Source: an uncultured cyanobacterium (GTDB taxonomy: Bacteria; Cyanobacteriota; Cyanobacteriia; Phormidesmidales; Phormidesmidaceae). From it: a DNA stretch of 64,000 nucleotides. The DNA lies in NCBI GenBank assembly GCA_963793265.1, contig CAWBZI010000003.1, positions 1 through 64,000 of the forward strand. Direction: 5' to 3'. Made by a program: the position numbers and the translations under genes. Positions 5,261-63,515 of this stretch are shown piece after piece (the first letter of the stretch is position 1; each line of letters starts with the position of its first letter). The notes under the pieces were generated by a model. It did no database searches. It was given only the letters and a program-made list of their open reading frames with translations, and was not told the DNA's origin.

Positions 5261-5490
5261 AACGATTCTCGTTCCTGATTGCCCTGCTCTGGGCGTCCCT
5301 CGGCCATAAAGTCGTCGGAAAAAGTAGAGAAGAGATCCATCACGTCAGTGAGGTAGTCACCTACGGGCGTGATGATGATGCGATCGCCCTGCCGCTCAAT
5401 CTCATAGTCCACATCTAACTGCTCAAACTGAAGCTCTTTAGGAATCCGCACTGCCTGCGAATTACCACTTTGAAAAACCCGAGTACGCAT
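5257..5490 (-). CDS. vapB: VapB/VagC antitoxin (AbrB fold)
   Basis: MRTRVFQSGNSQAVRIPKELQF AbrB motif; ATG at 5490. Confidence 0.92.
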   Translation of the reverse strand: MRTRVFQSGNSQAVRIPKELQFEQLDVDYEIERQGDRIIITPVGDYLTDVMDLFSTFSDDFMAEGRPEQGNQERESF

Positions 5491-5510
5491 AGTTGGTTTC
5501 ACAATCTTTA

Positions 5511-5529
5511 TGTATATACAGTATATACT
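5511..5529. promoter_or_regulatory. Tandem palindromic operator candidate for vapBC autorepression
   Basis: Two abutting perfect 10-bp palindromes, TGTATATACA (5511-5520) and AGTATATACT (5520-5529), 20-40 bp upstream of the vapB ATG. Confidence 0.6.
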
Positions 5530-5586
5530 TTATTTTGATTGGAGATACGTACAGCAAAGTCAGTAAAACGATGGGTTCCAAATGAA

Positions 5587-5660
5587 TCGGGATGGCGGGA
5601 TTCGAACCCACGGCCCCTTCGTCCCGAACGAAGTGCGCTACCAAACTGCGCCACATCCCG
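5587..5660 (-). tRNA. trnP: tRNA-Pro(CGG)
   Basis: Reverse complement reads CGGGATGTGGCGCAGTTTGGTAGCGCACTTCGTTCGGGACGAAGGGGCCGTGGGTTCGAATCCCGCCATCCCGA: cloverleaf, anticodon CGG, T-loop GTTCGAAT, no encoded CCA. Confidence 0.97.
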
Positions 5661-6006
5661 CTACGCTGCACCAGGGCGGCAGAGAGCCCTTAAGCAATGC
5701 ACTAATAAAGCTACCACAAAAGATAAAAAAGTTGGGCGGTGAGTTGAGTCCAACTATCACCGTGAGGCAAAGGGGAACTTTCCCGATTGCATCCCGATTA
5801 GGCAGAGGGAACTTTGAAAGATCTAGCACAATCAACTTAGGTTGATGGGAACCTTGGTTTTGGGCGAGCGATCGCACCCCTCAATCCCAATCACTAGCGC
5901 TAAAGCAGCATCACTCGGTAAACTTCTGAGGATGTCTGCACAGACGAACGATCCAGCTCCCTTTAATTTTTATACTTACTGCACATCTCAACTGCACTTT
6001 ATAACC

Positions 6007-7458
6007 ATGGCTTCAGTCTCTCCATCTACGTTTGTGGGTAAAGAAATCAAGTTTGGCACCGACGGCTGGCGGGGGATTATCGCGGCTGACTTTACCTTTG
6101 AGCGGGTGGGTAGAGTGGCTGCGCTGGCCGCTCAGGTGCTTGAGGAAACCTACGGCAGTAACGGCAGTAAGACGGTGATTGTGGGCTATGACCGACGCTT
6201 TTTGTCTCCTGATTTTGCGCGATATGCGGCAGAAAGTATTGCGGCGGCAGGCTACGAGGTAAAGCTATCAGAGTGCTTTGCGCCGACGCCTGCGTTTAGC
6301 TGGGCGGCGTTTGATCAAAAGGCGCTGGGGGCGGTGGTGATTACCGCGAGCCATAACCCGGCGGCGTATAACGGGCTGAAGATAAAGAGCGCTTTGGGTG
6401 GGTCGGTGCCGCCAAAGGTGACAAGTAAGGTAGAGGCTAGGCTGAAGGAGGAGACGCCCAAGGCGAGTGCGCCTGGGAGCATTACGAGCTTTGATCCCTG
6501 GCCGAGCTATTGCAGCGCGCTGCAGTCGATGGTGGATATTGAGGCGATTCGGCAGGCGGTGGATGATGGCAAGCTGACGGTGTTTGCAGAGGTGATGCAC
6601 GGGGCGGCTTCGACGGGGTTGAAGCGGCTGCTAGAGCGGGAGGTGAATGAGATTAATAGTGAGGCCGATCCTTTGTTTGAGGGGGGTGCGCCGGAGCCGC
6701 TGCCGAAGTATATTCCGAAGCTGTTTAAGGCGATTGAGAATAAGGAGAATGATGGCCTGACGGTGGGGCTGATCTTTGATGGGGATTGCGATCGCATTGC
6801 TGGAATGGACGGGAAAGCCACCTTCCTTAGCTCCCAGGTGCTCATTCCGATTTTGATGGAACACCTGACCAAGCGGCGTGGGATGAAGGGCGAAGTGGTA
6901 AAAACGCTGAGCGGGTCTAACCTGTTTCCGGCGTTGGCGAAACTGTACGATTTGCCGCTGTACGAAACGCCGATTGGCTACAAGTACATTGCCGATCGAA
7001 TGCTGGATGCTGAGGTGCTAATCGGCGGTGAGGAGTCGGGTGGAATTGGCTACGGCCACCATATTCCTGAGCGAGACGCGCTGCTTTCGGCGCTGTATTT
7101 GCTAGAGGCGGTGGTGCAGAGTGGGAAAGACTTTGGCGAGCTGAATGATTCGCTCAGAGCGCAGGCAAACTTTAGCTCGGCCTATGACCGAATTGATTTG
7201 CCGCTGGCGAGTATGGAGGTGCGCGCTAAGCTGCTCGAAGCGTTGCAGTCTAGTACGCCTGCGGAGGTTGCCGGGCAAAAGGTAGACAACTGCATCACAA
7301 TTGACGGCTATAAGTTTAATTTGGTGGATGGTAGCTGGCTGTTAATTCGCTTTAGTGGGACGGAGCCAGTGCTGAGGCTGTATTCAGAGGCGGCGACGAT
7401 TGAGCGGGTGCATGAGATTTTGGCGTGGGCGAAGGACTGGGCGAATGCGGTTGGGTAG
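6007..7458 (+). CDS. Phosphoglucomutase/phosphomannomutase
   Basis: FGTDGWRG, ITASHNP, FDGDCDR, GGEESGG and RFSGTEP motifs; likely start ATG at 6007. Confidence 0.95.
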   Translation: MASVSPSTFVGKEIKFGTDGWRGIIAADFTFERVGRVAALAAQVLEETYGSNGSKTVIVGYDRRFLSPDFARYAAESIAAAGYEVKLSECFAPTPAFSWAAFDQKALGAVVITASHNPAAYNGLKIKSALGGSVPPKVTSKVEARLKEETPKASAPGSITSFDPWPSYCSALQSMVDIEAIRQAVDDGKLTVFAEVMHGAASTGLKRLLEREVNEINSEADPLFEGGAPEPLPKYIPKLFKAIENKENDGLTVGLIFDGDCDRIAGMDGKATFLSSQVLIPILMEHLTKRRGMKGEVVKTLSGSNLFPALAKLYDLPLYETPIGYKYIADRMLDAEVLIGGEESGGIGYGHHIPERDALLSALYLLEAVVQSGKDFGELNDSLRAQANFSSAYDRIDLPLASMEVRAKLLEALQSSTPAEVAGQKVDNCITIDGYKFNLVDGSWLLIRFSGTEPVLRLYSEAATIERVHEILAWAKDWANAVG

Positions 7459-7499
7459 TGCGCAATAATGAGAGAGTGTTCGGGCTTGCTGTACTTTAT

Positions 7500-8168
7500 C
7501 TAACGCGCCAGATCGTATTCGCCGCCTCGATCTAGCGCTTTTTTGTAGGCCGGGCGAGCGTGAATGCGGTCTAAAAAGTCACGAATAGCCGGACGCTTTG
7601 GATCGACTTCACCGCTACCGGCGGCCTCTTCTAGCGGAAAGCTCATTTGAATATCGGCAGCAGTAAAGTCATCGCCAACAAACCATGAGTGCTTCGATAG
7701 TTCGGCATTCATATAGTCTAAATGCAGCGCTACTTGAGGATTGATAAATCCACTTTTGGCTTGCTTTGTAATTGCGCGTGTGGCCTTGCGTAAGAAGAAC
7801 GGCGTTTTCTCTTCGAGCATGTCAAAAACCAGCTTTAGCAGCAGGGGCGGCATGGCAGAGCCTTCAGCATAGTGCAGCCAATAGGTGTAGCGCAGCTTTT
7901 CAGGCGTATCTGGGGCGGGCATCAGGCGTCCATCACCATATCGATTCACTAAATATTCAACAATAGCGCCTGACTCTGCGATGGTTAGCTCACCATCGGT
8001 AATCACCGGAGATTTGCCAAGTGGATGCACTTTGCACAGTGCGTCTGGGGCTAGCATCGTCTGCGGGTTGCGTTCGTAGCGTTTGATGTCGTAATCTAGA
8101 CTGAGTTCTTCTAGCAGCCAGAGAATACGCTGCGATCGCGAATTATTCAGGTGATGGACAGTAATCAT
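7500..8168 (-). CDS. Glutathione S-transferase
   Basis: HHLNNSRSQRILWLLEEL, HPLGKSPV, AESGAI and FTAADIQM motifs. Confidence 0.95.
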   Translation of the reverse strand: MITVHHLNNSRSQRILWLLEELSLDYDIKRYERNPQTMLAPDALCKVHPLGKSPVITDGELTIAESGAIVEYLVNRYGDGRLMPAPDTPEKLRYTYWLHYAEGSAMPPLLLKLVFDMLEEKTPFFLRKATRAITKQAKSGFINPQVALHLDYMNAELSKHSWFVGDDFTAADIQMSFPLEEAAGSGEVDPKRPAIRDFLDRIHARPAYKKALDRGGEYDLAR

Positions 8169-8252
8169 AAGCGCCTTTTCGAGACTTGAGCTAAAACTGT
8201 TGCTTCTACAACAACCTTACATAGATAGTTACAACAAAACGTGCGGCTGTCA

Positions 8253-9026
8253 TCAGCCCGTAGTGTAGTCAATTGCCAGCTTAATCACCAGCGCACTCGT
8301 CACCAGAATAAAAATCGGCTTAATTAGCTTTGCGCCTTTTTTAGTAGCAAAGGTTGCGCCGATAAATGAGCCAGCGCTGACGCCTATCGCACCACAAATG
8401 CCTCTGGAATAGTCGATATTACCTGCGAAGGCAAAGGTAATAAGAGCAGTGAAGTTAGCCAGTAGGTTCAAAACTTTAGCGGTGCCAGTGGCGCGTAAAA
8501 AGTCGAAGGGCCACAGCGATAGCAGCACAAATACGAGAAAAATGCCGGTACCAGGGCCAAAGAAACCGTCATGAAAGCCGATAATCCCACCTGCAAAGAT
8601 ACTCCATAGAATTCTCTTTGTTGGATTGGCGGTGAGTTCATCAGAGGTTTCAGCTTTTGGCTTTGCCATACCAAAGCCAGGATTGAGCACAACAAAAAGG
8701 GTGATCGCGACCATCAGCGCAATGACTAGCGGCTCGGCCCAGGTGGAAGGCAACAGACCGATACTGCGACTGCCTAAGTAAGAGCCCAACAGCGTCGGCA
8801 CTGCCATTACGGCGCAGGCTCGCCAGTCTACCTGTTTGGACTGGGCGAATTTTAGAGAGCTGGTGAGTGCGCCAAAGGTGCCGCAGAGTTTGTTGGTGGC
8901 GATCGCACCACTCACAGGCAGTCCTGAAAACAGCAGCCCTGGCAGCATAATTAAGCCACCGCCACCTGCGATCGCATCGACAAACCCCGCCAGCAACCCC
9001 ACCGCAAAAATTAGGAGTAATATCAT
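8253..9026 (-). CDS. TSUP (TauE/SafE, YfcA-like) permease
   Basis: AGFVDAIAGGGGLI, ATNK and GFHDGFFGPGTG motifs; multi-TM. Confidence 0.92.
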   Translation of the reverse strand: MILLLIFAVGLLAGFVDAIAGGGGLIMLPGLLFSGLPVSGAIATNKLCGTFGALTSSLKFAQSKQVDWRACAVMAVPTLLGSYLGSRSIGLLPSTWAEPLVIALMVAITLFVVLNPGFGMAKPKAETSDELTANPTKRILWSIFAGGIIGFHDGFFGPGTGIFLVFVLLSLWPFDFLRATGTAKVLNLLANFTALITFAFAGNIDYSRGICGAIGVSAGSFIGATFATKKGAKLIKPIFILVTSALVIKLAIDYTTG

Positions 9027-10285
9027 CCCTTCAGAATATCACTCAGGATTTGAATACCGCGTTCGGTAACCGCTGGGGGCAGTGAAAAATTAAGGCGCAG
9101 TGCGGGATAGCCTTGATGGGTGGGGAAGAACGCAGCGCCCGAGCCAACGAGAACCTTTTGGGCAGCAGCAGCAGCACACACCGCCATCACACAAAGAGAA
9201 TCGGGGAGCTGAATCCATAGAAACGTGCCACCGTTCGGGACTGTCCAGGTGACATTTGCCGGAAAGTGGCGGAGGAGGGCGGCGATCATGTGATCGCGGC
9301 GCTCGCGGTGCAAACTTCGCAGTTGGTTCAGGCGGCGGCGGTAGTGCCCTGAGGATAGATACTCTTTGATGATGGCTTGAGAGGCGGTGGAAACGTGGAA
9401 GTCGTGAAGCAGCTTGCGCTCAATAATGGACTGGCTTTCGGCTCCGGTAATAGCCATGTAGCCGACCCGCAGTCCTGGCATTAGGGTTTTGGAGAAGGTG
9501 CCCACGTAGATGACGTGATCGCTCGTATCAAAGAACGCCGTTAGCGTCATAGGAATACCGACGATTTGGGCGTTTCGCTGCTGAAGGCTGGAAAGGAAAC
9601 CGTGATAGGTAGGCGCTTCGACCATGACGCGATCGCCCGGTGCGACAAAGTGTTCGACTAAAAGAGAGAGTGACTGCATAGAGCCGCTGGTCACAATGAG
9701 ATTTTCAGGAGAGATTTCTAGCCCTTGCTGAATGAGAAGCTGGGTAATTTGCTGACGCAGGCCCAAGTCGCCCTGTGGATCGCCGGGATGAAAAAAGGTG
9801 TGTGCTTCTTTCATCGCTCGGCGGGCGATCCGCTGAAGATCTTCGAGGCCGCTTGGCTGAGGAAAGCCAAGGCCAAAGTCGATGTAGTTGTCCTGCGCGT
9901 GGGTGTGTAGCGAGGCGGCGTAGATTTTAGGAAAAGCATTGATCCCGTGAGTCGGAATGATGACTTCTTGGGCGGGATTGAACTGGCGGCTGCGCTCTAC
10001 TGGGCGAGACTCGGGGGAAATTACTTTCGGCGCAGTCGCTCGATAGCCAGGCGGATTAATAAAAAAGCCCGATCCCTGTTTGGCTCGCACCAGGCCATCG
10101 GCTTCGAGCACACTGTAGGCTTCGAGCACAGTGAGCTTGTTTACTTTCACCGTTTGGGCCAGTACGCGAATAGAAGGAAGCTGGGCGTCAGGAGGCAGAT
10201 GGCCGGTTTGGATGAGGTGGCCGATGCGATCGCGTATTTGCAGATAAATGGGCTGCTTAGCCTGACGATTAAGCGGAATTTTCAT
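9023..10285 (-). CDS. MocR/GabR-family GntR regulator with an apparent in-frame internal deletion
   Basis: GntR wHTH (PIYLQI...LPSIRVLA...GSGFFI) plus aminotransferase-like domain (VEAPTY, GTFSKTLMPGLRVGY); the NPTG and EDxxY segment is missing. Confidence 0.85.
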   Translation of the reverse strand: MKIPLNRQAKQPIYLQIRDRIGHLIQTGHLPPDAQLPSIRVLAQTVKVNKLTVLEAYSVLEADGLVRAKQGSGFFINPPGYRATAPKVISPESRPVERSRQFNPAQEVIIPTHGINAFPKIYAASLHTHAQDNYIDFGLGFPQPSGLEDLQRIARRAMKEAHTFFHPGDPQGDLGLRQQITQLLIQQGLEISPENLIVTSGSMQSLSLLVEHFVAPGDRVMVEAPTYHGFLSSLQQRNAQIVGIPMTLTAFFDTSDHVIYVGTFSKTLMPGLRVGYMAITGAESQSIIERKLLHDFHVSTASQAIIKEYLSSGHYRRRLNQLRSLHRERRDHMIAALLRHFPANVTWTVPNGGTFLWIQLPDSLCVMAVCAAAAAQKVLVGSGAAFFPTHQGYPALRLNFSLPPAVTERGIQILSDILKG

Positions 10286-10583
10286 GGGCCTACGTTTGAT
10301 GTGTGCCATCGTCACAGCCTACCGGATCGTCAAACAGGCCGCACGGTACAGTTTTTGAAACTTTAGCTAGAACACTTTTGTTTTTCCCTAACTGTTCTAG
10401 CCGTAGGAATAGCTGACTTGATGTTTGGCTAAAGTATGGAGTTGTCATAAACGATTTTGTATAGATGTCTAAAAGACGGTGCGTGTATAGCATCCGATAG
10501 GCTATCGTGACCGTACTTATACGTAGTTAAGAAGTACGTAGGAATAAGGAGTGGCCTCTGGCGCTGTCATTCGTAATTTGGGT

Positions 10584-12206
10584 ATGAACTGTTTAGAGCT
10601 ATTGGCGAGCGGGGTAGAGCAATGGAATCAGTGGCGATCGCTGAATCCTGACGAGCCCTGTGATTTTTCGGGCCAAGATCTAAGCGCCTGCTTTGGCTTT
10701 GAGGGCAACTTCAGCCGGGTCAACTTTAGCGGCGCTAACTTACAAAGGGCGTGCTTTATTGGCGCTAATCTTGAAGGGGCTGACCTCAGCGGCGCTGACC
10801 TGCGAGGCGCGTATTTAGGAGATGCCAATTTACGCAGCGCTAACTTGAGCCGGTCAAAGCTTGCAGGAACCCATTTAGATAGAGCTGATTTGCGAGAAGC
10901 TAACTTACATGGGGCAAATGTTGCAGAAGCCAATACTCACAAAGCGATATTTACGCCAGCCGTAGGAGAGAATTCTATTGAGCATCAGGAAGAACCGCAG
11001 CCTACATCGAGCTTAGTAAAAACGGCTGCTCCCGAACTATCCTCGCAAGATCTCCTCAACAAAGAGGCAAAGAAAAAAGAGAATGCAAGCGACGGCCGTC
11101 AGAGCAATTTGCTAGCACCGCGCCGAGAAACTGGGAAAATAGCAACTGGACTGATAGCGGCAACTGGCGCTGTTTCAGTTTTAATCGGGCTCTCTTTACT
11201 GTCACTTCCTCGCAGCGATAGCTTCGCTGTCAATGATGCTACGGGCACCGATGCCGCAAGTACCGATACTGCAAATACCAACATCACAGAAAATCGCTCC
11301 CCTAACTTTCAACTGGCCCAGTCTGTAGAGGAGGGTGCTGAAGTGTGGGCGATCGCAGCTCATTCAGAGGTTGGTGGGAGCCCGGTCGTGGTCAGTGGCA
11401 ACAACAACGGCAACCTTGACATCTGGAATCAGACCACAGGAGGACTGGAGCGATCGCTAGAGGGCCATAGTGATACAGTGCGATCGCTGGCAGTCTCAAG
11501 CTCTGGCCAATACCTCGCTAGCAGCAGCTCTGATGGCATCAAAGTATGGGAGCCTGCAACGGGCGCGCTGGACTACAGCCTGCCCGTTGCAGGCTCGCCG
11601 GTATGGTCGGTAAGCATTAGCCCTGATGAAACAACGCTGGTGAGCAGCGACTATACAGGCAACATTGCGGTGCGAAAGCTAGAGAATGGAGAGTTGATTT
11701 ATAACCTGGAGAATGATGCGACGGTATGGTCGGTGGTAGTGGCTCCTGATGGTGAGTCTTTTGTGAGTGGGGGAAGCGGTCGCACTATCAAACAGTGGGA
11801 TTTGGCGACAGGCGAGCTGATTAGAGAGTTTGAAGGGCATGACGATGCGGTGCGATCGCTGGCTATTAGCAGTGATGGCAAGACATTGGTTAGTGGGAGT
11901 TGGGACAGCACTATTAAGCTATGGGACTTGGCGACAGGTGAGCTGATGTCTACGCTGAGTGGCCATGATGATCGCGTGGTGAGCGTGGCGATTAGTCCTG
12001 ATGGTAAAACGCTGGCAAGTGGCAGCGTCGATACGACCTTAAGGCTTTGGGATGTGAGCGCAGGCGAGTCAATTAGTATTTTAGAAGATAATACTGATTG
12101 GATTTTGGCAGTGGCGTTTGAGATAGCAGCGCCAGATCAGCCGTTAGAGGAAGCGGTGCTGGTGAGCGGTGGGAAGGATGAGCAGGTGAATATTTGGCGG
12201 CGGTAA
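10584..12206 (+). CDS. Pentapeptide-repeat / TM / WD40-repeat protein
   Basis: N-terminal A(D/N)Lxx repeats, hydrophobic segment GLIAATGAVSVLIGLSLLSL, and about 7 GH...WD repeats. Confidence 0.88.
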   Translation: MNCLELLASGVEQWNQWRSLNPDEPCDFSGQDLSACFGFEGNFSRVNFSGANLQRACFIGANLEGADLSGADLRGAYLGDANLRSANLSRSKLAGTHLDRADLREANLHGANVAEANTHKAIFTPAVGENSIEHQEEPQPTSSLVKTAAPELSSQDLLNKEAKKKENASDGRQSNLLAPRRETGKIATGLIAATGAVSVLIGLSLLSLPRSDSFAVNDATGTDAASTDTANTNITENRSPNFQLAQSVEEGAEVWAIAAHSEVGGSPVVVSGNNNGNLDIWNQTTGGLERSLEGHSDTVRSLAVSSSGQYLASSSSDGIKVWEPATGALDYSLPVAGSPVWSVSISPDETTLVSSDYTGNIAVRKLENGELIYNLENDATVWSVVVAPDGESFVSGGSGRTIKQWDLATGELIREFEGHDDAVRSLAISSDGKTLVSGSWDSTIKLWDLATGELMSTLSGHDDRVVSVAISPDGKTLASGSVDTTLRLWDVSAGESISILEDNTDWILAVAFEIAAPDQPLEEAVLVSGGKDEQVNIWRR

Positions 12207-12319
12207 GTGGGTTCTAGCGCGTAATTGTTCTATTCAAATCAAACAAAAGCGTACCTTCCGGCAGTAGCACCTCAACAGTCATAGTAAGGGTGTTGTCACC
12301 AGATAAAAGGCTAGTAGCG

Positions 12320-12610
12320 ATGGACTCTCACTTTGCACATCAAGGCGATCGCACCCTAGAAATAGAATTCAGTCAAAGACTTCAACAGTCTCCTTTCTTC
12401 AAAGAATCACCCACCCCACTGCCGCAAAAGTGGTTCAAGCAATGGGCGCAAGCAGTCGTTGACTATCTCACAGGCGCTCAGGCTTTATCTATTCGCCAAA
12501 AGCTTTGTAAGGACGGCAGTGTGCAATGGATAGCCTACGATCCATACACTCGCAGTCGCCACGTTTTCAGCTCTGAGCAAGCCGTTCGAGTTTGGTTAGA
12601 GCAGCGATGA
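12320..12610 (+). CDS. Conserved cyanobacterial hypothetical protein
   Basis: C-terminal WIAYDP...FSSEQAVRVWLEQR resembles a small protein family I recall from cyanobacteria. Confidence 0.6.
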   Translation: MDSHFAHQGDRTLEIEFSQRLQQSPFFKESPTPLPQKWFKQWAQAVVDYLTGAQALSIRQKLCKDGSVQWIAYDPYTRSRHVFSSEQAVRVWLEQR

Positions 12611-12750
12611 GCTGTTTTGACACACCGCGTTAAGAGGCTTTTTGTCTGATTCAGTGCGGCTGAAATGGTTCAATATGGCTATGGGCGGTTTGCTCGCAGC
12701 TAGCGTTGTTTTACTGTTGAAATAACCTAAACAAAATATAGGAGAACGCA

Positions 12751-13599: not shown

Positions 13600-13605
13600 G
13601 AGCCA

Positions 13606-55477: not shown

Positions 55478-55802
55478 AAAAAAGCGGCGTTGAGCGCCAT
55501 AAGAGCATCAGACGAGCAGCAGGCAACAAGCTTGAGCGAAGACCTCCACGCTTATTGTTAAGTTTGTTACAAGTTTTATAGCAGCTCGGCTGTTCATTTT
55601 AAGAACATTCTGCAAGTAAAGCCGCTACAAAGCTAGTAAATTCAAGGAGAAACCGCAATAACACGGAAACGCAAATGAATGTTTAAGCCAACTTGAAATT
55701 TTAAGTCGTACCTGCTATATTTTGCAAGGTCTGGGCCTGATTGTAGTCATTGCTACATCTGAGCTTTTGACAATTGGCTAAACGGTACAAGAGGTAGAAA
55801 AC

Positions 55803-56114
55803 TTGGCACGCAGACGTAAGCGCAAAAGTCGTCGTCGGTTAGAAGGGCGTCGCATCTTAGAGGCAGTGCCTCAGTTCAGCATCGAGAGCGGTGAAGAAAA
55901 GCCTGTGACGGCTGCTCGTAATTACATTCACGCTCAAGGCATTTGTCCGCCTGCTCTACTGTTAGTAAAGCGAAACGAACACACGACCGATCGCTATTTT
56001 TGGGCTGAAAAAGGTCTATTTGGCGCTCAGTATGTTGAAGAGAACCACTTTTTGTTCCCTAGCCTCCGTCTTCTTATGACTGAAGAAGAAGAGGAGCTAG
56101 CGGTTTCAAGCTAG
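55803..56114 (+). CDS. DUF3155 family protein
   Basis: MARRRKRKSRRR.EGRRILE...RNEHTTDRYFWAEKGLFGAQY; TTG start with AGAGG RBS. Confidence 0.88.
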   Translation: MARRRKRKSRRRLEGRRILEAVPQFSIESGEEKPVTAARNYIHAQGICPPALLLVKRNEHTTDRYFWAEKGLFGAQYVEENHFLFPSLRLLMTEEEEELAVSS

Positions 56115-56147
56115 TCGTTCTCCAAATCCATCAGAACTCATCTAAAT

Positions 56148-56198
56148 AGGAAGGGGCTAGACGTGCTTATTAGGAGTACTTAGCGCCTTCCTTTTTTT
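56148..56198 (+). terminator. Intrinsic terminator
   Basis: AGGAAGG...CCTTCCT stem followed by a T run, between convergent genes. Confidence 0.65.
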
Positions 56199-56211
56199 GG
56201 TCTGTTTATCT

Positions 56212-56871
56212 CTAAGCCAGCTTCTTTAGCCCGGCCCAATCTCTCACATCAGCTTGCGCAAAAGTATTCTCCAAATCAGCCAGCTCATCTCGATGCCCTT
56301 TCACAGTCAGCTTCGAGAGCAGGCTTTCATCGCCCTCAGCGGCAGACTCACCTGCAACCATCGGCTCTACTTTAAACACAATCGTCTCCGGGCGATTGGA
56401 CTTGCGCCAGTAGAATACGCCCGCTAAAGGTGAAGCTGCGACTAGCCCCAACAGCCACCCGCCCCAGCTCGGAAACAGCGTGGCGACCACCAGCGATAGG
56501 CAGGTAAAGCCAACGGCGGCAAGCACCGACAAAAACACGGCCATGAAAACGCTGGGGCTGACCATGCCCGTGAGCGTAGTGCCGTTGATGATTGTTGGGC
56601 CGGGGGTATTGTCGGGCACGCGATCGCTTGGCTTATAGGCGCGGCTATAAAAATACTTCATCACCGCCTGCTGCAACGTATCGGCCTTTTGCACAGAGCC
56701 GAGCTGCACCACCTCAATGCGGTCTTTGGTAGAGGCGCGAATAAAAAAGACCAGACCAATCACCATCAGGCTCGTCAAAATCAGCGTAGACGTGCGGGCT
56801 GGATCGTTAAAGAACAAAGCGTTTGTACCTTGATTACATGCTGAGAATAAACAACAGTTTACCAGTTCCAC
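56212..56871 (-). CDS. ccb1: Cofactor assembly of complex C subunit B (CCB1, DUF3529)
   Basis: STLILT.LM.IGL.FFIRASTKDR, SPLAGVFYW and GHRDEL motifs. The true start is probably downstream of the track start. Confidence 0.88.
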   Translation of the reverse strand: MELVNCCLFSACNQGTNALFFNDPARTSTLILTSLMVIGLVFFIRASTKDRIEVVQLGSVQKADTLQQAVMKYFYSRAYKPSDRVPDNTPGPTIINGTTLTGMVSPSVFMAVFLSVLAAVGFTCLSLVVATLFPSWGGWLLGLVAASPLAGVFYWRKSNRPETIVFKVEPMVAGESAAEGDESLLSKLTVKGHRDELADLENTFAQADVRDWAGLKKLA

Positions 56872-56879
56872 AAAAAAAC

Positions 56880-56926
56880 AGAGAAAAGACCACAGACGAC
56901 AAGGAGGGCTGTCATCTGCGGTCTTC
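56880..56926. repeat. Imperfect inverted repeat between pex and ccb1
   Basis: AGACCACAGACGACA...TGTCATCTGCGGTCT. Confidence 0.5.
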
Positions 56927-56998
56927 TATCAACGGAGCTTTTTTGGGTGTATCTATATCTGTTTGAAAGACCTACTCAAAAGCGAAAAGCGCTGCTTG

Positions 56999-57466
56999 CT
57001 AGGAACCAGCAAACTTCATTTCAGCGGCCACAGCTAGCGCCTGAGTCGCCACGACATGTTGAGCGACAGCAGTCTGAGGAATGGGCTGAGCATTCACCTT
57101 TTGAGGCGTCTGCTGGCGACTGCGCTGCTGGCCTACCATGTAGCGCTGCCACAGGTCGGCTAGCTCGCGGGCTTTCATCTGCCAGTCAGGGCGCAGGCGA
57201 TACATCCGACGCGGACGACCTCGGCCTTCGACCTTTTTCCAGTAGCCCATAATCGACGCCTGGTTCTCTAAAAACTTCAGGGCGCTATAGAGCACAGTAT
57301 CTGAAAGGCGATAGTGGGGATAGTCTTGCTCGATGGCGTGGATCAGTTCGGTGCCATAAGAGTCGTGGCGGGTCAGAACTGACAGAACGTAGCAGACGGC
57401 CAGCTCTTTGTTGAGATACACCGGGGGGGGATCTTCAAAGAACTGATAGATATCTTCAAACTTCAT
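56999..57466 (-). CDS. pex: PadR-family circadian period extender Pex
   Basis: EDIYQFF..PPP.YL.KELAVCYVL, SYGTELI, RLSDTVLY.AL.FLE and GRGRPRRMY motifs. Confidence 0.88.
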   Translation of the reverse strand: MKFEDIYQFFEDPPPVYLNKELAVCYVLSVLTRHDSYGTELIHAIEQDYPHYRLSDTVLYSALKFLENQASIMGYWKKVEGRGRPRRMYRLRPDWQMKARELADLWQRYMVGQQRSRQQTPQKVNAQPIPQTAVAQHVVATQALAVAAEMKFAGS

Positions 57467-57793
57467 AGGAAGCTCCGATAGCGGGCTAGGTAGCAGCTTG
57501 TAGAAGTCAACACGCCCTACATAGCTTTCTATTTTTTAGTTAATAGAAGACAGAAGAGGTGCTAAAACTGCTGATTCATTTTAGCCACTAAATAATAGAT
57601 TTACTTAATTTTTGCGAAAGCGGTAACTATCCGCAAGGTTTCGTCAGACTTAGGCAAAGATCGACGGTTCAGGCACCATTTTTGTCACAAAGCAGGAGCG
57701 ATCGCTTCTCACTTTGTTGTGTTTCGTCACTAATTAATCAAGCTATGTTGCTAACTATTTCAAATCGTTTCAAACAGCACTCGCTCAACCGAT

Positions 57794-59278
57794 TTATTGA
57801 GAGCTATCGCGAGTGCGGAAGAGGACTCGGCCATCTTGAACGGCAGCCAGATCGAGGTAGACAGGGCCGGTGGTGAGGATAGGCTGGCTAGCGATCGCCC
57901 GAATCTCAAGCGGCTGACCGTAGCTTTGCACCCGGCTCAAAAAATCCAGAACCGGCTCAGAAAGACCGTTGGCAATAATCGGCTGATAGCGAATGATGCC
58001 GTTGCGACGGGCCTGAAACTCAGCCGTGGCTCTCAGCAGCGTAAAGCGCTCAATCAAGGCTTCGTTACTTACATTAGCGGTAACGGGCGCGGCCGCTAGT
58101 ATCTCCCCAGGCTGAAAGCGAACCTCGTTGACGGCTGCGTCAATATTCACCTGCAAGCAGGGCTCAGTGTCCTGCGTAACCGAAGCATTCACGCAGGGCT
58201 CACCAACGATGTAATTAGCTGCCGAAGAGACTCTAATTACATAGTTTTGCTCGTCGGGAATGGCATTTATAATCTGTTCGACTGTCTCCTCGTCAAAGCG
58301 AATAACTACCTTGTCAGTGCTGTCGATACCCGGTAGAACAGTCTGCGCGGCAGTTTGGTTGGCGGTTACTAAAGCTTCTTCTACAGCCCTGCGCGCAGCC
58401 GCTGATGAATTAACGCGAGCAATAGTCAGCGCCAGCGTTTCATTGCGGCCTAGTGCCACGTTACCTAAGCGCAATCCTTGAAACTCAGCTTCTAGACTTT
58501 TAATTTCTTCGGTGAGGAAAGCCTGTTGGGTTTGCAAATCAGCTAGGCGGCTTTCACGCTCAGCAATTTCCCGATCACGCTGGGCGATTTGCTCGTCACG
58601 CTGGGCAATTTGGCTGTCGCGCTCGCTCAGCTCAGCGGCGCTTCTGGCAAGTTCTTCAGCCCTTTCGGCAAGCTGTTGATCACGGTCAGAAAGCTGCGCG
58701 TTACGCTGTGAAATTTGCTCGTCGCGCTGGGCAATTTGGTTAAGCACTTTCGCCTGCTCATCTAATAAATTCTGCCGCTCCGTGCGCAGCCCGTTGATTT
58801 CGTCGCGCAGCCCTACCGCCTGTTCGGAAACGCTGCCTAGCTGCGACTGGGTTTCCATTAGTCGGCCTAGCGTTTCTTCTTCGCGGGCGATCGCAGTCTG
58901 CAAAGAGTCATTGATCTCTAGCAGCCGAGACTGCGCTTCTTTTTGCAGCTCGGTAGATTCTTGTAGCGTGCTTTCCACCTCGTCTTTCTCAGCCTGAGTC
59001 GATTCTAAATCAGCCTGAGCTAGCGCGAGTTCTTCTTGAATATCATCAATTTGAAACAGCCCTTTGCGCAGTTGGCTATCGAGCGCGATCAGCAGCATTA
59101 GGGTAGAGAAGGAAGCGACGACGCCTGTAAAAACGCTGACTAATGTGGCGGTTTGCCGGGGCCGCAGGTTGAACAGGCTGAGGCGAGATTTTCCCACCTT
59201 CATACCAATGCGATCGCCCACCGTGGCGATCGCACCGCCGAGGCAAGCCACCGCAAAGATTAGTACAAATCCTGTCAT
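57794..59278 (-). CDS. DUF3084 domain coiled-coil membrane protein
   Basis: LGGAIATVGDRIGMKVGK.RLSLFNLRPRQTA motif; heptad QRDEQIA repeats; usual neighbour of ntcA. Confidence 0.88.
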   Translation of the reverse strand: MTGFVLIFAVACLGGAIATVGDRIGMKVGKSRLSLFNLRPRQTATLVSVFTGVVASFSTLMLLIALDSQLRKGLFQIDDIQEELALAQADLESTQAEKDEVESTLQESTELQKEAQSRLLEINDSLQTAIAREEETLGRLMETQSQLGSVSEQAVGLRDEINGLRTERQNLLDEQAKVLNQIAQRDEQISQRNAQLSDRDQQLAERAEELARSAAELSERDSQIAQRDEQIAQRDREIAERESRLADLQTQQAFLTEEIKSLEAEFQGLRLGNVALGRNETLALTIARVNSSAAARRAVEEALVTANQTAAQTVLPGIDSTDKVVIRFDEETVEQIINAIPDEQNYVIRVSSAANYIVGEPCVNASVTQDTEPCLQVNIDAAVNEVRFQPGEILAAAPVTANVSNEALIERFTLLRATAEFQARRNGIIRYQPIIANGLSEPVLDFLSRVQSYGQPLEIRAIASQPILTTGPVYLDLAAVQDGRVLFRTRDSSQ

Positions 59279-59415
59279 CCGTCGCCGAGCACTTGCAGAT
59301 TCTTTAACTACGCATTCCTAGCTACGTAATAGCACGGCCTACGACCATACCATAGCAAGATGTCGGGATAGAGGGCTGCAATGCCCCAACTATCAGCAGG
59401 CACAATCGGCTCGGC

Positions 59416-60090
59416 TTATGTGAACTGCTGTGAGAGCGTCACCGGATCGTGAACCGTAATCTTCTTTTTATGAATCGAGATCATGTCTTTTTCACGCAGA
59501 TCGCCTAGCAGCCGAGTGACGGTAACGCGCGTAGATCCAATAGCTTCTGCGATCGCCTGATGAGAAAGCTTCAAATCCACCGTGATCCCCGAGCTACCGG
59601 GCACCCCAAAGTCGCGACACAAAATCAGCAAAAAGCTCACCAGCCGCGAGCCCATATCGCGGTGGGCCAGCGTCTCAATCATCATCTCAGTCTGCAAAAT
59701 TCGCGAAGACAAGCCCCGCAGCATCAGCGCCGAAAGCCCTGGATTCTCCATCAGCGCCTGATTTACCTGATCGCCCTGTAGCGAAAGCAATTCTACCGGG
59801 GTAAAGGCCACCGCATGATAAAACCGATCGGACTTCTCGCCTGTTAGCAGCGAGAGCACGCCAAACACGCTATTTTCGCGCAGCAGCGCCACCGTAATTT
59901 CTTCACCCGCCTCGTACACCCGCGACAGCTTCACCGCGCCCTTCGTTAAAAAATAGATACGCTCTGCCGGGTCACCCGGAAAAAAGATGGTCTTATTGCG
60001 TTCATAAGACTCGACAACCGGCGGTAGCCCCCCACCCGCTAACGCGCGAAACAGCTCGGACATAGGCTTGTTAGGAATTGTCGAAACCAT
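59416..60090 (-). CDS. ntcA: Global nitrogen regulator NtcA
   Basis: [52 protein letters not shown] and [22 protein letters not shown]. Confidence 0.98.
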
Positions 60091-60189
60091 ACTTGAGAAC
60101 CGAAGGGGTGAAGCGTAGGGGATCTGGATTGTTATGGGATGCTAACGCATCGCTGATACCACTAAAGCTCATCAGCCAAGATACGTTTT

Positions 60190-60203
60190 GTATCGTCCCA
60201 TAC
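60190..60203. promoter_or_regulatory. NtcA box upstream of ntcA
   Basis: GTA-TCGTCCCA-TAC (GTA-N8-TAC) 100 bp upstream of the ntcA start; no clean TAN3T seen at the canonical distance. Confidence 0.65.
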
Positions 60204-60362
60204 CAAATAGACCCCGATTTTCTCATAAATCGGGGTTTCGCGACACTTTTATCAGTACTTTCGTATTGACAGGTACTTAGAACACGGACAGGGGGCTATC
60301 GTGAATTCACCGTTTTTCAGTATGCTCCTAAGGCGCATCCAAACTGTTTAGACGAAAGATTC

Positions 60363-61140
60363 ATGCTAGATCTGACCGGAAAAAAGGCCCTTGTGACCGG
60401 CATCGCTAACAACCGCTCAATTGCCTGGGGCATTGCTCAGCAGCTCCACGCAGCGGGCGCAGAAATCGGCGTTACCTACTTGCCCGATGACAAAGGGACG
60501 AGCTGAGGGCAAGGTGAAGAAGCTAACTGAGCCACTTGAGCCCAGCCTCTTTTTGCCTTGCAACGTGCAGGACGACGCCCAGGTAGACGAGCTGTTTGCC
60601 ACCGTCAAAGAAAAGTGGGGCACGTTTGACATTCTCATTCACTGCCTGGCCTTTGCCAATCGCGACGATCTCACAGGCGCTTTCAGTGACACCTCACGAG
60701 CCGGATTTGATTTAGCGCTGAGCGTAAGCGCATATTCTTTGGTGCAGCTAGCTAAAGGCGCAAAAGCACTAATGCCTGAAGGTGGCAATATCGTTACGCT
60801 TACCTACCTCGGCGGCGTTCGGGTCGTACCTAACTACAACGTCATGGGTGTGGCTAAGGCGGCATTGGAAATGAACGTACGCTATTTGGCGGCTGATTTA
60901 GGCCCGCAGAATATTCGAGTCAATGGCATTTCCGCAGGCCCTATTCGCACCTTGGCCTCATCGGCCATTGGCGGCATTCTAGACATGATTCACCATGTTG
61001 AAGAAGTAGCTCCACTCAGACGAACTGTCACGCAAACTGAAGTCGGCAATGCGGCTGCATTCTTGTGTAGTGACTTGTCAAGCGGGATTACGGGTCAAGT
61101 CGTTTATGTAGATTCTGGCTACGCGATTATGGGGATGTAG
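60363..61140 (+). CDS. fabI: Enoyl-ACP reductase FabI (one extra base near 60495)
   Basis: [25 protein letters not shown] from ATG 60363 joins the ...[12 protein letters not shown]...[10 protein letters not shown] frame if one G of GGG at 60495-60497 is removed. Confidence 0.92.
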
Positions 61141-61152
61141 CTTAGCTCCGAT

Positions 61153-62827
61153 TTAGTCGGTGAACGCGCTATCAATGGCACCGACTGCAACAGGTTGAGA
61201 TTCAGGGTTAAGGAGAGGTTGCAGGGCGATCGCCTGAGCCTCTTTCATTTGCCCGTAGGTAAACACGCAGGGCGTTCCAGTCGGTAGTATTGGCTGAATT
61301 TGTTGCCACACGTAAGGGCTGCCGTAGACGATGACGGCCTGCACGTTGCGGCCTAGCGCTTGGATGTATTGCTGGGTGATCGCACTCAACCCAACCCCGC
61401 TACGAAACGGATTGCCCCGAATAAAAAGCTGCACCAGGGTAGTCGCTTCTATATCTAATCGATCAACGTCTGCACTTCTGCTATCAACCAGCGTCAAACG
61501 GTAGCCTTGAGCGCCCGGCACCGTCACCGCAGGCGCAGTGCGATCTAAAAACGGGCAGTGCAGCACGTCATCCACGAGCACCAAATTTTGACCGGGAATG
61601 AGAGGGGCGCTGATTGCCTGACCCAGGCTTTTAGCGGGCGCGTGGCTCACCTGCTGAGCACGTTGCAGAATGTCTTTGGCAAGTGCTCTGGTCGGCTCAG
61701 TGGCTAGATACTCAAGCTGAACGGGTGGCACGGCCTGCTGCTGCCAGGCGTGCTGCGAAAAAGAGTCGGTGACGGGTAAGTCGGCAATTCTGTGCTTTCG
61801 CTCGCCAGATGCGTTCGACGGCTCGCAGGATAACCGCTGGCTCGATTCGGCCTTCATTTACCGCCGCACAAACAGCCGCGATCGCCCCTTCCACATTCTC
61901 CGGCATCAGCAGAACATCAACCCCCGCCTCCACCGCTAGCACCGCCGCTTCATCTGCGCCGTAGTGCTGAGTAATGCCACCCATCACCAGCGCGTCGGTT
62001 ACAATCAGCCCGTCAAAGCCCATATCCTGCCGCAGCAGGCCGCTGAGAGTCACTTTGGAGAGCGTAGCGGGATACTCAGGGTCAACGTTGGGGAGCTGGA
62101 GGTGAGCGGTCATGATGCTGTCTACTTTAGAGGCGATCGCCCGCTCGAAAGGCACCAGTTCCAACGCCTGCAACCGTTCAAAATCGTGAGGCACGACAGG
62201 TAGGCTCAAATGCGAATCCATATCCGTATCGCCATGGCCGGGAAAATGCTTAGCTGATGTCAGCACCGGAAACGCCCGCGCGCCTTCAATAAAAGCACTC
62301 GTCAGCGCTGCTACCGTCTGAGCACTTTCGCCAAAAGCCCGCACGTTAATCACCGGATTAGCCGGGTTATTATTCACATCCACGACTGGAGCCAGCAGCC
62401 AGTTCAGCCCGATTGCCGTAGCTTCTTGAGCAATACTTTCTCCCATCTGCCGCGCCAAATCTACCGCCAAAGGCAAATCCTCGCGCGCAATCTGGCCTAG
62501 TGCCATCGGTGGGGGAAACCACGTCGCCCCGCTAAAGCGCTGCCCGACGCCCTCTTCAATATCAGCCGCCATCAATAGCGGATACTTTGCTAAAGACTGA
62601 AGCTGCTGCGTTCGGACGCCGACTTCAGCCGCACTGCCGCCCAGCAAAATCACGCCACCCACGCCCAGCGCCAGCACCCGCTCTAGCTCAGCATTCGTCG
62701 CCTCCCACTGCGGATAGGCCACCTCATGATCGAATAGATGGCCTGTCGTTCGCACCACGATCATCTGAGCCACCTGCTCAGCGAGGCTTAGCGTTTCGGG
62801 GCTCGGTAATCGCGTCGTTGCCAGCAT
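61153..62827 (-). CDS. GH3 beta-N-acetylhexosaminidase (NagZ-like), one extra base near 61797
   Basis: ADIEEGVG, APVVDVN, KHFPGHGDT..DSH and IVTDAL motifs. The two track ORFs join as ...RIWRAKHRIADLP... after removing one T of 61796-61798. Confidence 0.88.
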
Positions 62828-62854
62828 GTCAGGGCGTCCACCGTTCAATTTCTT

Positions 62855-63259
62855 CTAAGTATCTGCTTCGCTCGTCTCTTCAGCATCAATCGAGTCTCCT
62901 GCCTTTCGCTCAGCGCTAATTTGATTGATTACGTTGAGCACATCTGTCGCCAAGTCAAACGAGCGGTCTTCTTTAAAAGTAACTTCAGGCGTTCGCCTCA
63001 GCTTCATTCGCTGCCCTAGCTCCCGGCGTACGTAGCCCTGAGCGGCTCTAAGCCCTTCCATCGTCTCAGCTTTAGCCTCATCAGTGCCATAGATGCTGAC
63101 AAATATCTTGGCGTGCTGCAAATCGCCAGCGACATCTACATCGGTAATGCTGACCATACCCGCACCCACGCGGTCGTCTTTGATGCCGTTGATAAGCATC
63201 TGACTGACTTCGCGCTTGATGGCCGTCGAAACTCGCGCGACTCTTCTGCTGGTAGCCAT
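62855..63259 (-). CDS. rbfA: Ribosome-binding factor A
   Basis: [28 protein letters not shown] and LRRTPEV.F motifs. Confidence 0.97.
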
Positions 63260-63317
63260 AGTGGTTTAAAAGGAGTGATTCAAAAGGGCAAGCGTACTGT
63301 CGAGAACGTGCTTGTTG

Positions 63318-63515
63318 TCAGGCGATTCCTAGCATGGCCTGGAGGGTAAAGGTGAGGCCAATCATGCCTGCGATCAGGGCGCTAATGAGTGCGATCGCTG
63401 TAAAAGGATTGTTTAGCAACGGCCCTAAAGGGGCGAGCGCGTTGTACAAAATGCCGAAGGTAAAGCTGATCAGATAGCGAGGATAGCGAGAAACATTGTT
63501 GATAAATTCTTCCAT
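63318..63515 (-). CDS. DUF751 family protein
   Basis: F..NVSRYPRYLI...LQAMLG; conserved position upstream of rbfA. Confidence 0.88.
   Translation of the reverse strand: MEEFINNVSRYPRYLISFTFGILYNALAPLGPLLNNPFTAIALISALIAGMIGLTFTLQAMLGIA

Follow-up and report, generated by a model that had tools for sequence, protein, structure and literature searches.

HIP1 (GCGATCGC) is a palindromic octamer and therefore its own reverse complement. In the cyanobacterial genome analysed here (99% complete), the DNA on either strand was G-richer upstream of HIP1 than downstream. This was the case at 81% of 6,887 HIP1 sites genome-wide (d = 0.114 ± 0.002), while 191 other palindromic octamers, taken as a genome-wide control, gave d = −0.005 ± 0.020. 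An earlier note on part of this DNA had described a G-before, C-after flip at HIP1 irrespective of coding strand, and this now extends to the whole genome. We found no description of HIP1 flank skew in the literature searched, and two papers treat the function of HIP1 as open for three decades (PMC13756078; PMC5861425). Whether the footprint reflects nicking at HIP1 followed by 5'→3' replacement of the strand on its 3' side is, in our judgement, an evenly balanced question.

Strand composition around HIP1

The window, which is the whole 64-kb stretch of DNA analysed, contains 89 HIP1 octamers against a mean of 1.8 after shuffling. Seventy of the 88 scorable sites were positive (d = 0.094), and 2,000 random draws gave 0.000 ± 0.012 with a maximum of 0.039. 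All HIP1 sites named in the earlier note were among the 89 (Table 1), and at all nine of its examples the G/C skew of the 100 bp before the site exceeded that of the 100 bp after it. At some of them the drop was relative, without a flip of sign (+0.36 before and +0.13 after 6788; −0.14 and −0.21 at 35841; −0.14 and −0.44 at 61878). The drift from C-rich to G-rich that had been seen between consecutive sites in the anbu and GH3 genes appeared as rising skew in both intervals. Pfam matches agreed with the labels anbu, GH3 and adenine methylase (dam), for anbu through a weak match to the Proteasome family; the methylase gene is listed as context only. The single exception noted, 32400–32960, is indeed G-rich (skew +0.29), and is followed, through 34500, by neither HIP1 nor a variant of the type GTGATCGC, the commonest decayed HIP1 form here.

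Table 1. Location and local G/C skew of the HIP1 sites discussed, with the D12-class methylase gene.
Feature	Position	Strand	Observation
89 HIP1 octamers and flanks	392..63978		each strand G-rich 5' and C-rich 3'; sawtooth between neighbours
HIP1 at 6788 and flanks	6688..6895		+0.36 before, +0.13 after; drop relative only
HIP1 at 12345 and flanks	12245..12452		−0.02 before, −0.26 after
HIP1 at 18146 and flanks	18046..18253		in + strand gene; +0.29 before, −0.38 after
HIP1 pair 35841, 36336	35841..36343		in − strand anbu-like gene; −0.21 after first, +0.37 before second
HIP1 at 36844 and flanks	36744..36951		in + strand gene; +0.11 before, −0.38 after
HIP1 at 50335 and flanks	50235..50442		in − strand gene; 0.00 before, −0.46 after
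HIP1 pair 61878, 62133	61878..62140		in − strand GH3 gene; −0.44 after first, +0.33 before second
D12-class adenine methylase gene, 5' part	63534..64000	+	PF02086, E 2.7e-16; Dam/DmtA-like, predicted specificity

The sawtooth was found genome-wide, with skew climbing from −0.47 to +0.45 over 2,056 inter-HIP1 intervals of 300–700 bp. Fourfold skew against signed distance, the comparison proposed in the earlier note, gave an antisymmetric curve centred on HIP1, and synonymous sites responded most strongly. On the strand 5' of HIP1, fourfold skew was about +0.6 at 0–10 nt, +0.39 at 30–40 nt and +0.19 at 100–125 nt, with the same profile on coding and template strands. Its decay is described by two exponentials of ~58 nt and ~1.1 kb. 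Most of the effect lies within ~60–150 nt, closer in than the several hundred bp originally described, and a weaker tail reaches ~1 kb. Because the second- and third-nearest HIP1 carry a weight of just 0.24, the nearest site dominates.

Near HIP1, fourfold sites were occupied by G at 0.445 and C at 0.146, and T was not enriched (0.21 near, 0.235 far). An excess of T over A was confined to the long component (0.14–0.17), and the T/A part of the short component was nil (0.03 ± 0.02). Of the G/T versus C/A contrast first described, the G versus C part therefore stands and the T/A part applies to the long component only. All 24 neighbour contexts shifted in the same direction, by 0.53–1.53 ln units, and G was favoured over T in every one. 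No clear 10.5-bp helical periodicity was detected (amplitude 0.016 at 10.5 nt, not above other periods).

The skew was equal in both gene orientations and in all three reading frames, and was also present at intergenic HIP1, which bears out the argument that codon usage of a single gene is an insufficient cause. Both flanks responded equally. As the short component is the same in either orientation, a transcription-coupled origin was rejected, as was a gene-position gradient, since gene start and end covariates left the HIP1 effect unchanged (control palindromes in that fit, −0.012 ± 0.016). The outcomes that would have spoken against the original observation, namely a flat synonymous profile, a similar profile around control octamers or an effect limited to one gene orientation, did not occur.

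The HIP1 effect was 1.25 at fourfold sites, 0.31–0.46 in intergenic DNA, 0.28 at codon position 1 and 0.18 at position 2. Regional skew was damped across these classes in much the same way (1.05, 0.20, 0.10 and 0.05, respectively), which fits a non-selective pressure. The long component depended on regional skew, its up/down values being 0.71/−0.30 under one regional sign and 0.46/−0.63 under the other, and its ratio of T/A to G/C (0.15/0.5) was about that of the regional skew itself (0.23/1.05). The short component kept both flanks under either sign (1.05/−1.39 and 1.36/−1.18).

Site specificity, lineages and candidate enzymes

The skew required the full octamer. HIP1 coefficients were 1.27 (short) and 0.53 (long), compared with −0.04 and 0.07 for non-HIP1 GATC, while non-HIP1 CGATCG was near zero (0.033 ± 0.032) and single-mismatch variants other than GTGATCGC did not exceed 0.037. 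The latter form had a skew of 0.156 where a sister genome has HIP1 (n = 19) and −0.039 elsewhere (n = 13), so that, on these small numbers, we rejected it as a second active site. We likewise rejected GGGATCCC, an alternative palindrome in genome G021 that was flat or slightly negative at its 112 sites.

Best matches to relatives of the window's genome were mostly 70–77% identical, with one piece at 83%, and a sister trio was therefore used for comparisons between genomes. HIP1 was strongly conserved, being retained in all three genomes at 163 of 248 loci. Skew was 0.40 at sites present in all three and 0.15 at those present in one only, and this weakness of lineage-specific sites supports the expectation for a footprint. 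Orthologues without HIP1 still showed a skew of 0.06; the skew outlasts loss of the site.

Among 113 HIP1-rich genomes, 105 leaned in the same direction and some were flat or reversed; the exceptions include the flat G023, the weakly skewed G151 and G133, in which the skew was slightly reversed. G286 and G157 also belong to the flat or reversed group, whereas G068, G201, G047 and G275 were, like the window's genome, strongly skewed. Four genus g1 genomes and G068, a member of another family, had a similar near amplitude (0.50–0.6). Outside this class, some genomes poor in HIP1 also had a crude pattern ratio above 1 (for example G096, 139/73, and G090, 69/25), and fourfold sites in G090 and G076 combined were flat.

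We next consider enzymes that could act at HIP1. In five genomes including that of the window, neither MutH (PF02976; E. coli control detected) nor Vsr (PF03852; three controls detected) was found. NucS was above the cut-off in none of the five, with nothing in the window's genome and one sub-threshold match in G023, and EndoV was found in one of five, the window's genome lacking it. A search for DpnI was uninformative, as it returned no match anywhere, controls included. MutS, MutL and a D12-class methylase gene of predicted GATC specificity were all present. The MutL carries EQHIAHERVLYE and CPHGRP, which we take to be endonuclease motifs. However, MutS1 and MutL occurred in 29 of 29 genomes, those with flat skew among them, and being universal they leave the variation in skew unexplained.

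A conserved m5C methylase of predicted specificity was found with one query in 24 of 34 genomes; a cluster look-up returned no name for it. That query did not find it in the skewed genomes G068, G047, G275, G304 and G027, and it was present in the flat or reversed G100, G241, G306, G215, G229, G298, G133, G157 and G189. On this query, the m5C form appears neither necessary nor sufficient for skew. Because this methylase does not track skew, and non-HIP1 GATC and CGATCG are almost skewless, a tie between HIP1 skew and methylation is unproven.

Substitution rates and competing explanations

Polarising substitutions in sister genomes, as had been suggested, revealed both raised and lowered rates on the 5'-side strand. 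At 21 loci of one species trio (fourfold identity 0.61–0.68, stationarity assumed), near/far ratios were raised for A>G (1.43, 1.24–1.69) and C>A (1.57, 1.04–2.22), and lowered for the complementary changes T>C (0.81, 0.66–0.98) and G>T (0.80, 0.64–0.97) and for G>C (0.60, 0.42–0.86). Increases in C>G (1.33, with an interval of 0.92–1.91 that spans 1) and in C>T (1.00 at fourfold sites) are less secure, as is the decrease in G>A (0.92 at fourfold sites). T>G was raised as well (1.43, 1.15–1.78), while A>C was not lowered (1.10). At other third positions, the ratios were forward/reverse symmetric (A>G 1.22, G>A 0.89, T>C 0.81, C>T 1.27). The total rate was unchanged (1.01, 0.91–1.14). In a non-reversible fit, the stationary value implied for G near HIP1 (0.33) was lower than the fitted root (0.46). 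Eight within-species data sets were listed, all of them contigs, which do not reveal the ends of molecules; the 40 of 241 differences listed for four of these were too few for an allele-frequency test.

A model with rates raised 1.4-fold and lowered to 0.7 yields G 0.44 and C 0.14, close to the observed composition. Pure deamination and increase-only models were rejected on T content and total rate, the increase-only ones requiring T of 0.27–0.35 and a total rate 27–40% higher. Pure protection, with decreases only, was rejected because A>G rises, as do C>A and T>G. An excess of C>N and A>G on the 5'-side strand, as expected of a single-stranded tract, was found. Still, a purely mutagenic tract misfits, because some rates drop and the total is constant. 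The earlier suggestion that HIP1 is the entry point of a strand-asymmetric process is partly supported, by the antisymmetric curve, its presence in both gene orientations, its absence around control palindromes and the weaker lineage-specific sites.

The reading that we put at about even chances is as follows. One strand would be nicked at HIP1 as an entry point, and DNA 3' of the nick would be removed and resynthesised 5'→3'. Near each site, the strand 5' of HIP1 would then serve as template and win: C and A damage or mispairs on it would be copied and fixed, and identical lesions on the excised strand erased. As HIP1 is palindromic, either strand could be nicked, giving a mirror-image footprint per site. 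A candidate nicking factor is an endonuclease-type MutL acting with MutS, much as in the HIP1-directed mismatch repair hypothesised by Elhai (PMC4390886), though in one direction and blind to strand age; an alternative candidate is a HIP1-specific nickase. It is slightly less than an even bet that many cyanobacteria possess a repair or recombination system, so far undescribed, for which HIP1 is the recognition site. Such a system would open a single strand there with none of MutH, Vsr and NucS, and would rewrite ~60 nt, sometimes ~1 kb, one way. A fixation bias, through conversion or selection, matches the rates about equally well as a mutational reading.

Biased gene conversion in HIP1-anchored heteroduplex, between chromosome copies or during transformation, seems unlikely. 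Here, HIP1 would set the donor and excised strands, and G-containing mismatches (G:T, G:G, G:A) would favour the 5'-side strand more than C-containing ones. The bias is then one of fixation rather than mutation, and polar strand replacement is common to both explanations. The symmetric ratios at non-fourfold third positions, the flat total rate and the purely G versus C short component are consistent with conversion, as is the boost that homologous HIP1 gives to integration in PCC 7002, a gain kept after addAB deletion (bioRxiv 10.1101/2024.09.10.611283). HIP1 is further reported to correlate with transformation genes (PMC13756078). However, fourfold A>G against G>A, and T>C against C>T, fall below the predicted symmetry, and near amplitude is similar in genus g1 and G068 although a fixation bias would be expected to scale with population size.

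Rather less probable is that the flanks are under weak selection as a landing pad with polarity. A protein that loads on the octamer, whether RecA, a helicase, a translocase or a nucleoid factor, would then work better with G-rich 5' DNA. A parallel proposal was once made for the GT-rich islands around Chi. The balanced rate ratios match a fitness order of G > A≈T > C, HIP1 is strongly conserved, and RecA prefers TGG repeats, with TG-rich DNA near Chi discussed in PMC3763553. Yet fourfold T is not enriched, G outdoes T even where T yields GTG (G_G context, +0.99 and +0.78), and the flanks have neither motif specificity nor helical periodicity. The intergenic response, about one third of the fourfold level, and the skew retained at decayed sites also argue against selection.

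Replication-coupled errors appear improbable. HIP1 would mark the places where replication is primed, pauses, exchanges polymerases or processes Okazaki fragments, and a mirror-image gradient would result from forks arriving from both sides. The ~1.1 kb component, with T over A as well as G over C in a ratio near that of the regional skew, and its dependence on the regional sign point this way. The short component does not, as it lacks a T/A part and keeps both flanks whichever the regional sign. In addition, the sign is terminus-like, and would be opposite to that of an origin and to the exposure gradient of HIP1-primed Okazaki fragments.

That the skew is an artefact, whether of codon or amino-acid context, of gradients along genes or of local composition autocorrelation, has next to no probability. 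For this genome an artefact is refuted by the fourfold peak, the equality across orientations and frames, the intergenic sites, the inert covariates, the control palindromes and the flat fourfold profile of G090 and G076, although a similar account was published for Chi islands (in a work among the references listed in PMC3763553) and such an artefact may be the source of weak ratios (1.1–1.5) in other genomes, given crude ratios above 1 in HIP1-poor G096 and G090.

The footprint shows that something directional takes place at HIP1, with a measurable polarity, two length scales, a need for the full octamer, nearest-site dominance and a substitution signature. Strongly skewed, flat and reversed lineages offer a natural contrast for tracing the factor. 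With G:C at about 4:1 at silent positions adjoining HIP1, the pressure is large, and it extends to codon positions 1 and 2; it can therefore confound analyses of codon usage, GC skew and selection in these genomes. If nicking and one-way replacement do occur, HIP1 would be the entry site of an undescribed system that shapes the choice of synonymous codons, and even amino-acid composition, throughout the genome, and the footprint would reveal the polarity, tract length and lineage distribution of that system.

Comparison with known systems

Vsr/Dcm repair nicks at a methylase site, and 5'→3' synthesis then fills a patch of about 10 nt. At HIP1, Vsr was not found in the five genomes searched, GTGATCGC sites act as ghosts and the tract is longer than this patch. 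Canonical Dam/MutH mismatch repair is bidirectional. Like the process proposed here, the E. coli system takes a methylated GATC-core palindrome as its strand signal and has kilobase reach (summarised in PMC4390886). It relies on MutH and on any GATC, whereas here MutH was not found and other GATC sites are nearly skewless; it also only lowers rates, whereas some rates near HIP1 go up.

Chi (RecBCD/AddAB) is also an abundant octamer with a recombination link and biased flanks, and HIP1 was once termed Chi-like. Chi is non-palindromic, unlike HIP1, whose flanks respond equally. Chi islands are GT-rich, which a work in the reference list of PMC3763553 ascribes to codon usage, whereas HIP1 flanks are rich in G and not in T or TGG. 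Unlike Chi with AddAB, the HIP1 gain in PCC 7002 is left in place by addAB deletion (bioRxiv 10.1101/2024.09.10.611283).

Human meiotic break hotspots leave a motif-centred mirror footprint of the same polarity, with C>N and A>N on the template strand that remains after 5'→3' resection (PMC7615360). They arise from double-strand breaks, and have a symmetric centre, peaks 700–800 bp off-centre and more mutation overall (PMC7615360). The HIP1 footprint, in contrast, peaks at the motif, decays over ~60 nt and leaves the total rate constant.

Elhai's hypothetical G-mC/HIP1-directed mismatch repair was meant to account for the origin of HIP1 (PMC4390886). It includes neither polarity nor a 58-nt component; the strings 'skew' and 'asymmetr' do not occur in that paper, and flank skew is not mentioned. 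The model relies on methylation of CGATCG and places the nick across from the methyl mark, on the other strand; here, skew does not follow the m5C form of the methylase. It does share with the process proposed here a HIP1-directed nick, excision and resynthesis on the opposite template, a reach of ~1 kb, and MutS and MutL in the absence of MutH. It also takes G-mC inside HIP1 as the signal rather than bare CGATCG, and the skew is likewise seen at HIP1 and is near zero at other CGATCG sites.

The skew flip at HIP1 in G000

The HIP1-linked skew flip is real, strong and HIP1-specific. The window (C3:1–64000 of genome G000) holds 89 HIP1 sites (shuffle mean 1.8), and the flip from G-rich to C-rich that the earlier note had seen at individual sites was recovered at all nine of its examples, which are G-richer before than after. 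The skew contrast between the flanks before and after HIP1 (d) is positive, i.e., G-richer before, at 70 of the 88 scorable window sites, with d = 0.094 versus 0.000 ± 0.012 for 2,000 random draws. Throughout the source genome G000 (5.68 Mb, seven contigs, ~1.2 HIP1 per kb), skew in the 10 bp flanking HIP1 is +0.32 before and −0.32 after, and approximately ±0.06 at 100 bp. Over 10–100 bp, d is 0.114 ± 0.0015, and 81% of 6,887 sites are positive. Within the window, differences to contigs of run X1 are densely clustered at 33877–33968 and 34573–34696, indicating a divergent allele, a recombined tract or another organism.

Gene calls in G000 (4,905, giving 85.6% coding sequence; uncurated) come from a custom script based on ORFs and hexamers. 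At fourfold sites 6–10 nt from HIP1, the strand lying 5' of it (the 5'-side strand) has a G fraction of 0.46 and a C fraction of 0.11, while A and T are nearly unchanged with distance. Fourfold skew is +0.39 at 30–40 nt, +0.19 at 100–125 nt and +0.08 at 250–500 nt, a decay that two exponentials (58 nt and about 1.0–1.2 kb) fit far better than one. A more distant HIP1 on the same side has a weight of 0.24, of which saturation may be part of the cause. No clear helical period was found in the skew of these flanks. The flanks had been described as G/T-rich before and C/A-rich after HIP1; this holds for the long component, where T also exceeds A, but not for the short one, which involves G and C only.

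As proposed, the pattern is independent of coding strand: fourfold skew is equal whether the 5'-side strand is coding or template. It is alike in all three HIP1 reading frames (0.29–0.32) and is also present outside genes (0.091 over all bases at 526 intergenic sites). The proposed drift from C-rich to G-rich between neighbouring sites was likewise found, from −0.47 to +0.45 over 2,056 intervals of 300–700 bp. All 24 contexts of neighbouring bases shift in the same direction. Regional patches of fourfold skew occur at C4:100–300 kb and C6:0–100 kb (+0.26 to +0.31 and −0.29) in a genome that is otherwise weakly skewed.

Control octamers lack the skew, as the proposal in the earlier note requires. 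Of the 256 possible palindromes, 192 have at least 10 copies in G000, and the 191 other than HIP1 average −0.005 (sd 0.020). The highest, ATCGCGAT, reaches 0.064 and falls to 0.012 away from HIP1. Among 12 classes of single-mismatch HIP1 variants, GTGATCGC alone is strong (0.096 far from HIP1), the others having at most 0.037. A logistic model of skew with gene-start and gene-end covariates gave HIP1 coefficients of 1.27 (short component) and 0.53 (long), compared to −0.012 and −0.014 for control hexamers, 0.033 ± 0.032 and 0.021 for CGATCG outside HIP1, and −0.04 and 0.07 for GATC outside HIP1. The skew requires the entire octamer.

Distribution among cyanobacterial genomes

In 301 genomes of the phylum, we counted the HIP1 copies in which positions +7 to +16 are all non-G and those in which they are all non-C, and took the ratio. 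We kept the 113 HIP1-rich genomes of the class; 165 genomes from other classes, and 23 from the same class that gave no more than 32 matches, were omitted. Among the 113, a ratio above 1 is seen in 105. The median is 1.43, z is above 3 in 86 genomes and below −3 in five, and the maximum of 5.0 is reached by G000 and G068; related genomes are not independent. Because ratios above 1 also occur on small counts in some omitted genomes (139/73 in G096, 69/25 in G090), weak ratios are soft evidence. HIP1-poor G096, G090, G105 and G108, from other classes, have ratios of ~1.7–2.8 at GCGATCGC, also on small counts.

Fourfold sites in G090 and G076 combined are flat (62 kb, 37 sites). The profile of G068, which belongs to another family, matches that of G000 (0.51 falling to 0.06). 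In samples of 20–120 kb per genome, near-site skew is positive in G027 (0.51), G106, G047 and G035, weak or unclear in G022 and G059, and a long, low plateau of 0.11–0.22 in family f19. All nine other genomes of genus g1 have z of at least 4.7 (20-kb samples). Profiles are flat in G023 (220 sites) and at GGGATCCC in G021, and weak in G151. T exceeds A on the 5'-side strand at 10–70 nt in G189 (loci L117–L120) and in G133 (L101–L105), with AT skew of −0.12 to −0.47; G/C skew is slightly reversed in G133. The footprint spectrum seems to differ between lineages.

Site age and substitution pattern

Three sister genomes of genus g1 (G004, G009 and G007; 85–88% identical), aligned three ways over 165 kb at 21 G004 loci, display the same skew profile and have HIP1 in common at 163 of 248 loci. 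Skew within 60 nt is 0.40 where the trio shares HIP1. At loci where just one of the three genomes is missing HIP1, that genome has a skew of 0.28; where just one carries HIP1, skew is 0.15 in the carrier and 0.06 in the orthologous sequences. Comparisons with shared sites reach significance, with orthologous bases non-independent; 0.06 and 0.15 do not differ significantly (p = 0.29). Of 53 loci at which one genome has lost HIP1, 18 have GTGATCGC, the commonest decayed form. Loci with GTGATCGC have a skew of 0.156 where a sister has HIP1 (n = 19) versus −0.039 otherwise (n = 13). We infer that a HIP1 site arises first, and that skew comes later and outlasts it. In G000, no other single-mismatch variant is as common as GTGATCGC (763 copies versus 163–460), which deamination of a methylated C could explain. 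GTGATCGC had no clear enrichment in the G004 and G009 samples, despite their having the same m5C methylase as G000.

Rate ratios on the 5'-side strand came from a non-reversible fit to fourfold sites of the trio (near, 2–40 nt, 5,285 pair-sites; far, at least 250 nt, 28,414; bootstrap over loci). Near HIP1, A>G (1.43, 1.24–1.69), C>A (1.57, 1.04–2.22) and T>G (1.43, 1.15–1.78) are raised, and T>C (0.81, 0.66–0.98), G>T (0.80, 0.64–0.97) and G>C (0.60, 0.42–0.86) are lowered. Ratios for C>G (1.33, 0.92–1.91), C>T (1.00, 0.85–1.15), A>C (1.10, 0.73–1.52) and G>A (0.92, 0.80–1.08) span 1, and those for A>T and T>A carry no information. The 5'-side strand gains G and loses C, its partner does the opposite, and the net rate is unchanged (1.01, 0.91–1.14). 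The fit is noisy, and the stationary composition it implies (near G 0.33) is lower than its fitted root (0.46); parsimony pointed the same way for A>G, T>C, C>G and G>C. Ratios at other third positions are 1.22 for A>G, 0.89 for G>A, 0.81 for T>C and 1.27 for C>T. Increase-only models were rejected, as a near G of 0.44 would need T of 0.27–0.35 and 27–40% extra rate. With rates raised by a factor of 1.4 and lowered by 0.7, a balanced model attains 0.44 and predicts T of 0.25 (observed 0.21).

Possible mechanisms and enzymes

There is an even chance, in our view, that the skew is produced by a HIP1 nick and subsequent 5'→3' strand replacement. A nick would be opened at HIP1, and 5'→3' removal and recopying would start from it; C and A lesions or mispairs would then be fixed on the template strand and erased on the excised strand. 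The substitution data fit mutation or repair bias and fixation bias alike and do not separate them; biased conversion in heteroduplex anchored at HIP1 is an unlikely source of the skew. Selection is a more doubtful one; the response to HIP1 is 1.25 at fourfold sites, 0.31–0.46 in intergenic sequence, 0.28 at codon position 1 and 0.18 at position 2, and regional skew falls off likewise across these classes (1.05, 0.20, 0.10 and 0.05). A replication-coupled process is improbable; both HIP1 flanks keep their skew, somewhat modulated, under either sign of regional skew. That a skew lacking at the control palindromes should be an artefact is barely credible.

G000 carries MutS1, several m5C methylases and a MutL with motifs that we take to be endonuclease-type, and searches of its genome found no MutH, Vsr, NucS or EndoV. 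The dam gene that had been placed at 63603 corresponds to a D12-class methylase in the window. One m5C methylase, with relatives in 24 of 34 genomes, is from this distribution likely the CGATCG enzyme. With this query, it was not found in five skewed genomes; nine genomes that are flat or reversed carry it, and flat G023 and weak G151 lack m5C methylases of any sort. Our survey covered m5C forms, and m4C forms are described by Elhai (PMC4390886). Three m5C methylase matches are possibly broken or frameshifted genes, judging by their sequence. According to PMC13756078, RadC and a GIY-YIG nuclease correlate with HIP1.

Coordinates of the window protein and of the interrupted methylase matches
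Feature	Location	Strand	Remarks
1,250-aa protein	window:29229-32981	minus	sub-threshold DUF6079 match only; includes G-rich 32400-32960, an exception in the earlier note
m5C methylase match	G000:C1:809848-811017		internal stops or in two pieces
m5C methylase match	G000:C4:93034-94084		internal stops or in two pieces
m5C methylase match	G007:C7:71686-72946		internal stops or in two pieces

The terms 'skew' and 'asymmetr' have no occurrences in the accessible text of PMC5861425 and PMC4390886, and 'skew' occurs twice in that of PMC13756078, both times on sampling and not on HIP1 flanks. We found no description of HIP1 flank skew in literature including these three, bioRxiv 10.1101/2024.09.10.611283, PMC3763553 and PMC7615360, mostly open-access main texts; supplements of HIP1 papers could hold flank analyses.

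Opposite geometry combined with other lesions would give the identical skew sign. For the HIP1 nick, we favour 5'→3' geometry because the substitution classes that rise on the 5'-side strand of HIP1 match those that human meiotic breaks leave on their template strand (PMC7615360). The HIP1 skew is a bacterial, palindrome-anchored variant of the strand-asymmetric footprints known around break sites.
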